Shown: in pieces, positions 11,220 to 14,210 of the stretch | Numbering within the stretch: position 1 is the stretch's first letter | How the letters are laid out: every line of letters starts with the position of its first letter | Source of the DNA: Escherichia coli | GTDB lineage: Bacteria > Pseudomonadota > Gammaproteobacteria > Enterobacterales > Enterobacteriaceae | DNA length: 64,000 bases | Strand: one strand, 5' to 3' | Assembly (NCBI RefSeq): GCF_045037415.1 | Contig: NZ_CP173438.1 | The notes under the pieces: model-generated | Told to the model about the DNA's origin: nothing | Seen by the model: only the letters and a program-made list of their open reading frames with translations | Databases searched by the model: none | Program-made: the position numbers and the translations under genes

Positions 11220-12260
11220 GTGAACATTCAGGCAGTAGACATTTTTTGTGGTGCGGGGGGCTTAACTTTTGGGCTAAAAAAAGCCGGGATTGAGGTTTCT
11301 CATGGTATTGATATTGATGAATCCTGCCGTTTTGCTATTGAGAGCAATAATCCTTTAACGCAGTTCATTAATCAGTCAGTTACAGAACTGCAATCCTGCG
11401 ATGTGTCTGCTATGTTCAAGGAAGGAAATATTAGATTGCTTGCTGGATGTGCTCCTTGCCAACCGTTTTCCAAGTATCGTAATCCAAATAGCCGTAAAGA
11501 CGATACAAAGTGGCGTTTGTTATATGAGTTTCAAAGGCTTGTAAGTGATGTCATGCCAGAGCTTGTGACGATGGAGAATGTTCCTCAACTTAGAAACCAT
11601 AAGGTTTTTGAAGGGTTTGTTAGTGCATTAAAGACTCTTGGATATCATTTGTGGTACGACGTTGTAAGATGTTCTGAGTATGGCTTACCTCAAAATAGAC
11701 GTAGATTAATTCTAATTGGTTCCCAATTGGGGCCGATCAGCCTTGATCAAAAAAAAGTTAGCCGTAAAGTTACTGTTAAGGATGCTATTGGTAGGTTGCC
11801 AAAAGTAGGGGCAGGTGAGAAGCTGGAAAGCGATCCCTTGCATCGTTCGCCTAAATTGATGGATATCAATCTTAAACGAATCATGCATTCTTTACCTGGT
11901 GGTACGTGGGATGACTGGCCTGAAGAAATTAGAGCAGACTGTCATAAAAAGAATTCAGGTGCTACCTATAAAAGCGTTTATGGACGGATGGTTTGGGACG
12001 ATACTAGCCCTACGATAACTACCCAGTGTTATGGATATGGAAATGGACGATTTGGCCATCCTGAGCAAAATCGCGCCATAACTTTGCGTGAAGCTGCGAT
12101 TTTGCAATCCTTTCCAATGGATTATAAATTCCTTGACAAGGAGACGCCTTTTTCATTCCAAAAATTGGGGACAATGATTGGAAATGCTGTTCCCCCTATA
12201 ATTGGTCAGATAATAGGGGAAACATTTATCAGACATGTTGAGGGGATAAATACCCGTTAG
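11220..12260 (+). CDS. DNA (cytosine-5) methyltransferase
   Basis: C5-MTase motifs in canonical order: I (DIFCGAGG), IV (GCAPCQPFS), VI (ENV), VIII (QNRRRLILIG), X (GNAVPP); GTG start with GGAGA RBS; AT-rich relative to phage core. Confidence 0.85.
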   Translation: MNIQAVDIFCGAGGLTFGLKKAGIEVSHGIDIDESCRFAIESNNPLTQFINQSVTELQSCDVSAMFKEGNIRLLAGCAPCQPFSKYRNPNSRKDDTKWRLLYEFQRLVSDVMPELVTMENVPQLRNHKVFEGFVSALKTLGYHLWYDVVRCSEYGLPQNRRRLILIGSQLGPISLDQKKVSRKVTVKDAIGRLPKVGAGEKLESDPLHRSPKLMDINLKRIMHSLPGGTWDDWPEEIRADCHKKNSGATYKSVYGRMVWDDTSPTITTQCYGYGNGRFGHPEQNRAITLREAAILQSFPMDYKFLDKETPFSFQKLGTMIGNAVPPIIGQIIGETFIRHVEGINTR

Positions 12261-12918
12261 AGGTAATATAATTTTCTGTTGAGTTGATTAATAAACGCAA
12301 ATATAGATCAATTCTTTCTGACCTCGATTTGACTTCTTCTAAAGGGTCTATTTGACCTTTTTTAGAAAAGCTGGTACTTCCATGTGCCAGCTCATTTCTG
12401 ATATCTTTAAGTAAATCTAAGTCAACACCATTTCTACACTCTGGTGAGTTTGCAACAGTTATTCCGTAAGCTTGTGTTATTTTGTGCAATACAGACTTGC
12501 AAACATTACCATTGAATTCTTTACGTATGTTTAATGAGGCTGAAATGATCCTTTTAGATATATCGGAACCAATTTTTTGATAAAGAGATTTTCCCGATTC
12601 ATTATCTGAAATGATACGGTGCAAGATATTTACTTGGAATTTCTCCCTGAGTGATGCGTAATTTACTTCATTATCTTGCAAATGGTCATAAATTGACTCA
12701 ATGCATCCTCTGGCAGTGTTTTCAACCTGATTGTACAGCATCATGTGCACGGATGATTTTAAAATGTTAACCCTAAGGGTATTTGATTCTATTTCATCTT
12801 TATGCGTTTGCTGATCTAACTGCTGAGTCTGAGCCTCTAAAGATGACGCAAGAGAAAGCAATTCCATAATATCTCTTGCTCTTTCTTCGTATTCATCTCT
12901 TAAATCAATCAAACTCAT
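12229..12918 (-). CDS. HEPN-domain protein (MAE_28990-like family), putative RNase effector
   Basis: 229 aa; C-terminal R-x4-H motif (RNELAHG) typical of HEPN; 3 nt downstream of DUF262 gene on same strand. Confidence 0.5.
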   Translation of the reverse strand: MSLIDLRDEYEERARDIMELLSLASSLEAQTQQLDQQTHKDEIESNTLRVNILKSSVHMMLYNQVENTARGCIESIYDHLQDNEVNYASLREKFQVNILHRIISDNESGKSLYQKIGSDISKRIISASLNIRKEFNGNVCKSVLHKITQAYGITVANSPECRNGVDLDLLKDIRNELAHGSTSFSKKGQIDPLEEVKSRSERIDLYLRLLINSTENYITSNGYLSPQHV

Positions 12919-12920
12919 AG

Positions 12921-14078
12921 TTACATTCCTAATAATTTATCTTTGACATAAAATATTCTGTTTTTGAGTTGGCTGGTGTTGTTGGCACTATCAGCAGTAA
13001 CTATGGTTTCAAATTCCTCCCCAAACAGCCAGTCTCCTACAGGAATAACCGGAGCCTGTAGATGTGGATTGGCTTTTAAGGCAAGAGCAGTTCCCACTGC
13101 TATGGCTTCGTATCTAGCACGGGGGGTGGTTTTGCTTGTTGGTGTCTTTTTAAACCCCATAGGGAAATGAGCATCTACAAAAGCAAGCATGCTTTCAAAA
13201 TCATGTTTAAATTTGTCTACATCTTGTTGTGTGACCCTTTCGGCCTGAACATTAAGATAATTGTCAATAAAAGGAGCGACATAACCCTTATAATTTTCTA
13301 AATCATTTAAGTATGCAAAAAATCTCAAAACTAACTCACGATGATCGCCATTCGAACGTTTCCGGTCTGATAATGGAGCTAGACTAGCGAAAAGTGGATT
13401 TGTTGAGCAAGGAGTCACAACATCCCTATAGAAAATTGAAGTGGCCGCATCTGAACCATGTCTAACCTCCATCGCTTCCAGTCTCTTAACACCTGAATTT
13501 ATTCTTTCGAATAAATCTCTTCTATGTTGCTCCTCAACATCACCTTTCAATTCAATAAATCTTAGTGATGCCCTTAAAAATCGCCTCTGGCGGCTAGCCA
13601 AAAGATCTGAAAATTTGAAGCCCTCTAAACTTTTGAGTTCTTTTAAGTCTTTCAATTCAAACTGATTGTTCCAAAAGTAGTAAATTGAGCGAATCCTTTG
13701 TGAACCGTCAATAATTTCTACACGACCATCCAACTCAGGATCTTCATTAAATACGTCGGAGATGTAGAGGTACGGGATTGGAAAATCTAATAATATACTT
13801 TCGATGAATCGAGAGGCTGTTTTGATATCCCATTTGTAATCGCGTTGATAATCAGGAATAAAAAGTTCGTTTTTGTCAGTTTCAAGATTATTGCCATACT
13901 TTTGTACAATTAATTCAACGGTCCATTCACGTACGTTGTATCCAATATTTCTCTGAGCAAGCCTAATCTCGTTGTCGGCAGAAGTGACCAAGGCTGCAAT
14001 TTCAGCTTTTTTTCTATTTTTCGCGTTTTCATCTTGAATCTGAGCAAGCTCTTCTTTGAGTTCTTTGAGTGTGGTCAT
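12921..14078 (-). CDS. DUF262 (ParB/GmrS-like nuclease/NTPase) domain protein
   Basis: 385 aa; N-terminal IPDYQRDYKW and IDGSQR (DGQQR-type) motifs diagnostic of DUF262; AAAGGA RBS before ATG at 14078. Confidence 0.7.
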   Translation of the reverse strand: MTTLKELKEELAQIQDENAKNRKKAEIAALVTSADNEIRLAQRNIGYNVREWTVELIVQKYGNNLETDKNELFIPDYQRDYKWDIKTASRFIESILLDFPIPYLYISDVFNEDPELDGRVEIIDGSQRIRSIYYFWNNQFELKDLKELKSLEGFKFSDLLASRQRRFLRASLRFIELKGDVEEQHRRDLFERINSGVKRLEAMEVRHGSDAATSIFYRDVVTPCSTNPLFASLAPLSDRKRSNGDHRELVLRFFAYLNDLENYKGYVAPFIDNYLNVQAERVTQQDVDKFKHDFESMLAFVDAHFPMGFKKTPTSKTTPRARYEAIAVGTALALKANPHLQAPVIPVGDWLFGEEFETIVTADSANNTSQLKNRIFYVKDKLLGM

Positions 14079-14110
14079 ATCACTGTTCCTTTAATTGGAG
14101 TTGGAAATAG

Positions 14111-14139
14111 ATTGTAAGAAAACTATAACGCGTACGCAA
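14111..14139 (-). promoter_or_regulatory. candidate sigma70 promoter for the DUF262-HEPN operon
   Basis: On minus strand TTGCGT, 17-bp spacer, TACAAT, ~30 nt upstream of the DUF262 ATG. Confidence 0.35.
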
Positions 14140-14185
14140 AAAATATTATATCGTGTTAAGAGTGGTTACTACGCCACACAGCTTA

Positions 14186-14210
14186 AACCCGCCGCCAGGC
14201 GGTTTTTTGT
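14186..14210 (+). terminator. intrinsic terminator-like hairpin (possible tR'-type element)
   Basis: CCGCC-GCCA-GGCGG stem-loop followed by TTTTTT on plus strand. Confidence 0.5.

Follow-up and report, generated by a model that had tools for sequence, protein, structure and literature searches.

A conserved association of a C5 methyltransferase with a DUF262–HEPN gene pair in the post-Q slot of an Escherichia coli prophage: a putative defence cassette

Layout of the cassette

A three-gene cassette was analyzed in a 64,000-nt stretch of Escherichia coli DNA (contig NZ_CP173438.1 of NCBI RefSeq assembly GCF_045037415.1); this whole stretch is called the window below. The cassette lies in a prophage, just after the gene for the antiterminator Q, and codes for a C5 cytosine methyltransferase (MTase), a protein with a DUF262 domain, and a protein with a HEPN domain. 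A first-pass annotation, made from the letters of the window and their open reading frames (ORFs), had described a cargo island here with a possible role in defence, the MTase serving as a protective partner.

The MTase gene (11220–12260, plus strand) begins with GTG 63 nt past the Q stop at 11156, as that annotation had stated, and specifies 346 amino acids (aa). On the minus strand, the DUF262 gene (12921–14078, 385 aa) is followed by the HEPN gene (12229–12918, 229 aa), whose start lies 2 nt beyond the DUF262 stop codon. The ORF coordinates thus place a DUF262–HEPN operon convergent with the MTase gene. The MTase and HEPN genes overlap at their 3′ ends by 32 nt (12229–12260), and there is no terminator between them; in the convergent homologous loci described below, overlaps of 4–38 nt occur, and a few loci have small gaps (at most 38 nt). 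All three ORFs are intact, and Pfam assigned to them the domains that had been claimed (PF00145, PF03235, and PF18737/PF18735). The same three products are named by the RefSeq Prokaryotic Genome Annotation Pipeline (PGAP) on identical copies. The GC content was 0.34–0.43 over positions 11000–14200 and 0.50–0.57 in the flanks; this profile and the ORFs bear out an AT-rich insert of ca. 3 kb between Q and the lysis genes. Neither the Rfam scan nor the tRNA scan gave a match in the slot. Both the cargo-island reading and the gene order hold.

Conservation of the three-gene linkage

The search for homologous loci used peptide patterns derived solely from the HEPN protein and covered one genome of each species; it yielded 61 loci. 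All their ORFs were sorted by iterative profile searching, and de-duplication at 80% HEPN identity left 34 informative clusters. The loci came from at least eight phyla and included Cyanobacteria (among them Microcystis, from which the MAE_28990 HEPN family takes its name), Gamma-, Beta-, and Alphaproteobacteria, Actinomycetota (Collinsella and Nonomuraea), Chloroflexota, Bacteroidota, Verrucomicrobiota, Bacillota, and Desulfobacterota. The DUF262 gene was directly upstream of the HEPN gene in 59 of the 61 loci; of the two exceptions, one is a contig edge and the other a truncated remnant. In 51 loci, a C5 MTase gene was adjacent. Counted by cluster, it was adjacent in 30 of the 34, being convergent in 18, co-directional and downstream in six, and co-directional and upstream in six. 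Adjacency that is kept through rearrangement is a classic sign of a functional unit. Because the adjacency persists though the gene order changes, the three genes appear to belong together, and this comparative genomics indicates that they most likely act together. The linkage, which extends across phyla and types of mobile element, lends support to the proposal of a defence module with the MTase as its protective partner.

HEPN homologues 41–69% identical to that of the window were found in Pseudoalteromonas, Yersinia, and Salmonella bongori, in each case in the order DUF262, HEPN, convergent C5 MTase; the Yersinia and S. bongori trios are prophage-borne. Further carriers of the trio were a Klebsiella pneumoniae plasmid, nine phages of Moraxella catarrhalis, and P24B2, a P2-like phage in which the trio lies beside the gene for the replication nickase, where the genome record ends. 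Many of the census loci had no phage genes nearby. The Pseudoalteromonas trio (locus L004, 6695–16675) adjoins tnsB/C/D/E-like genes and is probably the cargo of a Tn7-like transposon. In the S. bongori prophage (L006/L007, 10607–11334), a pair of genes for a HigB toxin and a helix-turn-helix antitoxin lies ca. 900 bp from the MTase gene of the trio, so that conflict genes form a small cluster in this prophage region.

Among complete E. coli genomes, a match to the cassette was detected in 143 of 5426, lineages of sequence type 131 (ST131) included, and at least 80% of the cassette was present in 106. Identical DNA occurs in many of these genomes, several of which are labelled O25b:H4-ST131. 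Two alleles could be distinguished over the whole cassette, one ca. 100% and the other 86.7% identical to the window at the DNA level; they lie in prophages that differ in their replication and lysis modules. The ratio of nonsynonymous to synonymous substitution rates between the alleles was 0.08 for the MTase, 0.05 for the HEPN protein, and 0.05 for the DUF262 protein. These ratios show strong purifying selection on all three genes in E. coli; each of them is thus kept by selection.

The C5 methyltransferase

The MTase matched PF00145 (DNA_methylase; E = 1.1e-53) and TIGR00675 (121 bits, over the cut-off), and the catalytic motifs FxGxGG, PCQ, ENV, and GNAVP are invariant in its lineage. The MTases of the 51 distant loci were 47–58% identical to that of the window over their full length (ca. 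340 aa), whereas unrelated C5 MTases in the same loci reached only 27–29%. We infer from these values that the locus MTases form a single orthologous lineage. Measured against the window proteins, the MTase is also the most conserved of the three (47–58%), followed by the DUF262 protein (36–47%) and the HEPN protein (21–33%).

C5 MTases usually differ most in the region between motifs VIII and IX. Here, that region (residues 170–284) had a median identity of 60%, compared with 51% for the N-terminal catalytic core. Since the MTase is nearly constant with this region included, the lineage probably shares one recognition motif; a caveat on this shared specificity is that part of the 170–284 stretch is framework common to many C5 MTases. 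The nearest solved structures were DNMT1, a structural-genomics MTase, and M.HaeIII, all of which matched over the catalytic core only. Identity with Dcm was considered and rejected, as the score against NF007772 was just 16 bits. A published study of the ST131 methylome did not assay 5-methylcytosine (m5C) and contains no description of this MTase (PMC4659465).

The DUF262 protein

The match of this protein to PF03235 (GmrSD_N/DUF262; E = 3.6e-25) covered residues 69–206 only. The IDGSQR motif, which had been picked out in the first-pass annotation, survived proper alignment: D124, G125, Q127, and R128 were invariant in 36 diverse homologues, as were the YQR and DGxQR motifs. The structure was predicted with confidence (predicted local distance difference test, pLDDT, of 91.8) and comprises an N-terminal helix, a ParB-DUF262 domain resembling nucleoside triphosphatases (NTPases), and a helical C-terminal half like that of NsnA. 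The best structural matches were BrxU and SspE.

An HNH/DUF1524-like C-terminal half, which had been put forward as a possibility, was not found. There was no Pfam match past residue 206, no histidine was invariant across the 36 sequences, and the structure comparison gave no His-Me/HNH match. The modification-dependent nuclease, to which the protein had been likened, is therefore the wrong model for it, the nuclease domain being absent. The PADLOC profile NsnA (E = 5.6e-46, 155 bits, residues 16–313) scored higher than PD-T4-2_A (E = 4.3e-27, 93 bits, partial coverage); the REase_II profile had no match to the window protein at E 0.01, and homologues matched it weakly. NCBIfam offered no model for either the DUF262 or the HEPN protein. 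By analogy with its relatives, the DUF262 protein is a predicted DNA sensor.

The HEPN protein

The HEPN protein matched PF18737 (HEPN_MAE_28990; E = 4.6e-16) and PF18735 (HEPN_RiboL-PSP; E = 8.7e-8). In its RNELAHG motif, R174, N175, L177, A178, H179, and G180 were invariant in 36 homologues, and the predicted structure (pLDDT 94.8) has a HEPN fold. The HEPN assignment and the R-x4-H motif are thus upheld by Pfam, alignment, and fold alike. The family is large, with 1288 clusters at 50% identity (E ≤ 0.001). The PADLOC profile PD-T4-2_B did not match the window protein even at E 10, and there was no match to NsnC; this is a stand-alone HEPN protein. It is a predicted RNase effector.

Comparison with known systems

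Table 1 of Anantharaman, Makarova, Burroughs, Koonin & Aravind (2013) lists an operon of MAE_28990 HEPN, ParB (DUF262), and DNA methylase (PMC3710099). The attributes of that entry, namely a MAE_28990 HEPN domain with R-x4-6-H, an adjacent ParB/DUF262 gene, and an adjacent methylase gene, were all found in the cassette, and Microcystis aeruginosa, the namesake organism of MAE_28990, is represented in the census. The cassette is a member of the association catalogued there. The entry consists of one table line, without a census, an experiment, or a statement on the lineage of the methylase. In the literature, MAE_28990 was found mentioned in no other paper, and no later paper describing the trio was found; a paper on the P2/P4 hotspot makes no mention of DUF262 (PMC9122126).

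The closest experimentally tested relative is a methylase-less pair, PD-T4-2 of strain ECOR65, which consists of a DUF262 and a HEPN gene, was cloned without a methylase, and protects E. coli from T4 (Vassallo et al. 2022; PMC9519451). The comparison was made with the PADLOC profiles and with the HHpred table of those authors, in which PD-T4-2B matches HEPN_RiboL-PSP and HEPN_MAE_28990 (PMC9519451). Common to both is a two-gene operon of DUF262 and a small HEPN protein, without DUF1524. They differ in length (1540 bp for both ORFs of PD-T4-2, compared with 1850 bp in the cassette) and in the methylase, which PD-T4-2 lacks; moreover, the window HEPN protein fails the PD-T4-2_B profile, and the match to PD-T4-2_A amounts to 93 bits only. 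The cassette is a distant cousin of PD-T4-2, not a member.

NsnA is a component of Menshen (NsnABC; Millman et al. 2022). An analysis by the Zhang lab describes NsnA as a combination of ParB-DUF262 with a helical, DNA-binding ParBDB domain and as a proposed DNA sensor; it also floats the idea that DUF262 can be aimed at unmodified DNA where methylases are encoded nearby (PMC12065111). The cassette shares with Menshen an NsnA-like protein and probably the logic, also proposed for Menshen, of a sensor that acts on an RNase effector. It has neither the NsnB ABC (ATP-binding cassette)-ATPase/DUF3696 protein nor NsnC (an inactive PIN domain with a C-terminal toxin), and instead features a stand-alone HEPN effector and a dedicated methylase. 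Membership in Menshen was rejected because the only neighbours of the DUF262 gene are the HEPN and C5 MTase genes.

GmrSD, BrxU, and SspE have the same N-terminal ParB/DUF262 fold with its DGxQR motif. In each of them, however, one polypeptide senses modified DNA and includes a His-Me (DUF1524) DNA nuclease, whereas the cassette has no nuclease domain, a separate RNase-type protein as its predicted effector, and a methylase partner. Membership in the GmrSD type was rejected on the absence of the C-terminal DUF1524 His-Me finger nuclease. To convergent type II restriction-modification (R-M) systems, the likeness is one of layout: a C5 methylase stands beside a putative discrimination-and-attack unit, the whole is mobile, and the methylase is better conserved than its partners. 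It differs from them in that no DNA endonuclease is recognizable, the predicted effector is an RNase, and the variable region of the methylase, instead of being diversified, changes hardly at all between phyla. A HEPN-MNT toxin-antitoxin system was likewise rejected; no minimal nucleotidyltransferase gene is adjacent, and the partner of the HEPN protein is DUF262. In the PADLOC profile scan of the cassette proteins, PD-T4-2_B, NsnB, and NsnC had no match, and hence no known system was called.

The post-Q slot and its relation to the stx position

The Q gene (10788–11156, plus strand) bounds the cargo slot on the left and stands outside the system. Its product matched phrog_79 (E = 4.9e-49), and PGAP calls it an "antiterminator Q family protein". 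Over 411 nt, it is 87.8% identical at the DNA level to the Q gene of a Stx1a phage; this homology ends at ca. 11110, and the last ca. 46 nt of Q lie beyond it. Homology to phage phiP27 picks up again at 14148. The holin gene is at about 16713, and the cassette is inside the Q-to-holin interval.

In phiP27 itself (L001, 2064–3293), the post-Q slot holds gene L22, annotated as a "GIY-YIG nuclease family protein", the C-terminal half of which matched the defence protein PD-Lambda-1 (E = 2e-89). Because of this match, the post-Q slot appears to be a hotspot for defence cargo in this phage group. The same slot of the Stx1a phage Stx1_14040 (L073, 821–2928) is occupied by an unrelated antisense operon of three genes, whose products have 220, 130, and 350 aa. 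PADLOC matched none of them, and Pfam, against which the 220- and 350-aa proteins were scanned, matched neither of these two. This operon is an uncharacterized cargo candidate upstream of stx1, which lies farther downstream, ahead of nanS-p and the holin gene.

The first-pass annotation had equated the slot with the site of the toxin genes in Stx-type lambdoid phages. This stands as far as the Q-to-holin interval is concerned and fails for the exact position: the cassette is in a separate variable slot right after Q. The stx-equivalent position of the present prophage is a deletion joint at ca. 15125–15131. Between the N6 methylase and esterase genes, phiP27 and the Stx phages carry tRNA genes and stx; a tRNA scan found no tRNA genes left at the joint. 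The post-Q position is a swap site in its own right, distinct from the stx position.

Around the joint (14680–16562), a gene for an N6 adenine methylase is cut near residue 151 and fused to one for a SASA/NanS-p-type sialate esterase (DUF6645) that is without its first ca. 150 residues. The prophage looks like a derivative of a Stx-type phage minus the tRNA/stx interval. The N6-type methylase gene is 600 bp downstream of the cassette, and between the two lies a small conserved gene, phrog_331 (14095–14529, with the annotated gene at ca. 14332–14529), which in phiP27 bears the annotation "TrmB family transcriptional regulator". It comes after a strong plus-strand terminator described below.

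Promoter and terminator signals

A TATAAT hexamer at 11188–11193 (plus strand), between the Q stop and the MTase start, is a possible element of an MTase promoter. It is followed by GGAG at 11211–11214, ahead of the MTase start, and is kept in the 86.7%-identical second allele (alignment with L002). The hexamer failed the promoter scan, and its −35 region is poor. For the operon, the first-pass annotation had nominated a sigma70-like promoter, of which the −10 element proved perfect: TATAAT occurs on the minus strand at 14145–14150, 67 nt upstream of the DUF262 ATG, with AAGGA 7 nt ahead of that ATG. The remainder of the claim found no support, as no acceptable −35 element could be discerned by eye and the scan returned no minus-strand promoter at this place; the site is a weak candidate. 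Promoter-like sites were fewer overall (5) than in shuffled sequence (9.3).

The plus-strand terminator hairpin that had also been reported was recovered by the scan. An intrinsic-terminator-like, GC-rich hairpin at 14189–14202 (CCGCCGCCAGGCGG) is followed by a T run (TTTTTTGTGT), the whole spanning 14189–14210. Since it is in sequence common to phiP27, the homology having resumed at 14148, this terminator belongs to the phage backbone; it sits just outside the cassette, on the strand of late transcription. The late promoter pR′ could not be placed. As the Q-proximal sequence is not common to phiP27, any transcription model for the slot is speculative. The DUF262–HEPN pair is transcribed against late transcription, and Q-dependent read-through at induction could, as a speculation, dampen the operon.

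Proposed mechanism and alternatives

On balance, we judge it probable, with considerable room for doubt, that the three genes constitute one mobile, restriction-modification-like defence cassette with a sensor and an RNase effector, carried as post-Q cargo of the prophage. The MTase would mark resident DNA, i.e. the host chromosome and the prophage, at a short motif, which the whole family probably has in common. The DUF262 protein would be an NTP-dependent sensor that engages DNA without the mark, such as that of an incoming phage or plasmid; the analogy for this role is provided by SspE, BrxU, and NsnA with their DUF262 domains (PMC10952713, PMC12065111). Such engagement would activate or release the translationally coupled HEPN RNase, and the resulting RNA cleavage would stop translation and block the invader, possibly with loss of the infected cell (abortive infection). 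The logic of this scheme derives from the obligate MTase partner, the absence of a DNase domain, the sensor role of DUF262, and the defence function of PD-T4-2.

Several observations weigh against this scheme. Four clusters with room on their contigs (L013, L017/L034, L023, and L068) have intact DUF262 and HEPN genes and no adjacent MTase gene. In L013 (Aphanizomenon), the MTase gene is cleanly absent; the near-identical sister locus L010 (Dolichospermum) has it. The E. coli IncF plasmid pVE155 (L071, 2828–4528) carries only the DUF262–HEPN pair. In phage P24B2 (L069, 2021–3041), the MTase gene is frameshifted in a G9 run (at ca. 2361–2365), and the DUF262 and HEPN genes are intact; this frameshift may reflect an error in sequencing or else a slipped-strand mechanism that turns the MTase on and off. 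PADLOC 2.0 would call no system at the locus and does not recognize the HEPN protein as PD-T4-2_B. The MTase-less pairs, the frameshifted MTase of P24B2, and the activity of PD-T4-2 without a methylase show that a lack of the MTase does not invariably make the pair lethal, and a strict model of attack on unmethylated DNA fits poorly, unless a second MTase of the same specificity is present elsewhere in those genomes. It may be that the sensor also depends on a further cue specific to infection, that the same methylase is encoded elsewhere in the genome, or that methylation tunes the response rather than gating it.

A methylation-gated form of abortive infection is entertained more tentatively. 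Here, in what would be a widespread form of restriction-modification that works through an RNase, a ParB-type NTPase clamp would read one fixed m5C mark, common to carriers from E. coli to cyanobacteria in view of the ca. 60% conservation between motifs VIII and IX of the MTase. Unmarked DNA would not be cut and would switch on the HEPN RNase. In a guard-model variant, the sensor would be parked on methylated host DNA and freed when a phage degrades the chromosome.

It is unlikely that two independent cargoes, a self-sufficient PD-T4-2-like pair and an orphan phage MTase directed against host restriction, merely share the slot. The function of PD-T4-2 without a methylase and the existence of MTase-less pairs would agree with such an arrangement, as would the commonness of orphan methylases in phages, exemplified by the N6-type methylase downstream in this prophage. 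Against it, 30 of the 34 clusters, spread over at least eight phyla, have an adjacent MTase of one and the same orthologous lineage, many of these loci have no phage genes nearby (e.g. the Tn7-like cargo) or are on a plasmid, and the gene order varies. Chance co-location cannot explain this linkage, in which the MTase is the most conserved member.

Two further readings are improbable, each to a similar degree. In the first, which is akin to type IV restriction, DUF262 would detect modified foreign DNA, such as the 5-hydroxymethylcytosine (hmC) or glucosyl-hmC of T-even phages, and trigger the HEPN protein, the cognate methylation being tolerated or regulatory. The closest solved structures, BrxU and SspE, are indeed modification sensors, and PD-T4-2 was selected against T4, a phage with modified DNA. 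The DUF1524/His-Me nuclease is absent, however, an obligate m5C methylase partner is unexpected if modified cytosines are attacked, and nothing links the family to the hosts of hmC phages, cyanobacteria and Collinsella being among the carriers. In the second, a classical type II-like R-M system, the ParB/DUF262 protein would itself be a DNA endonuclease and the HEPN protein an accessory, second-line RNase. Aravind's group does use the term "ParB nuclease" for this protein. Yet in GmrSD, BrxU, and SspE, DUF262 is the NTPase/sensor and a separate DUF1524 domain, lacking here, makes the cut (PMC10952713); the HEPN gene, moreover, is as strictly linked as that of the MTase (59 of the 61 loci) and thus is no optional accessory. 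Least probable of all is an addiction module with phage defence as a secondary effect, in which loss of the cassette would lead to loss of methylation and unleash the sensor and the RNase, so that the prophage or mobile element would be stabilized: intact MTase-less pairs speak against strong post-segregational killing, and addiction would in any case be compatible with defence rather than exclusive of it.

Significance

As the association of these genes was already on record in 2013 and the function of a sister system is validated, the cassette does not represent a wholly new category. What the present comparison adds, at the level of sequence, is that the methylase appears to be one orthologous, highly conserved C5 lineage, that the gene order varies, and that the DUF262 protein has no discernible nuclease domain. 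It also adds the range of carriers: the lambdoid post-Q slot, the P2 hotspot, a Tn7-like element, a plasmid, and the Moraxella phages. According to the data, defence cargo is swapped at the post-Q position of lambdoid prophages, a site apart from that of stx.

If the proposed mechanism of a self-marking methylase with a sensor and an RNase effector is true, the cassette would be a compact system in which DNA methylation is the self-mark and RNA cleavage is the response, a combination that has been proposed, and not yet demonstrated, for DUF262 systems. The near-constancy of the methylase suggests one fixed motif, and tests of the system would then be easy. The mechanism would also explain what DUF262 senses in the uncharacterized group of PD-T4-2 and Menshen.

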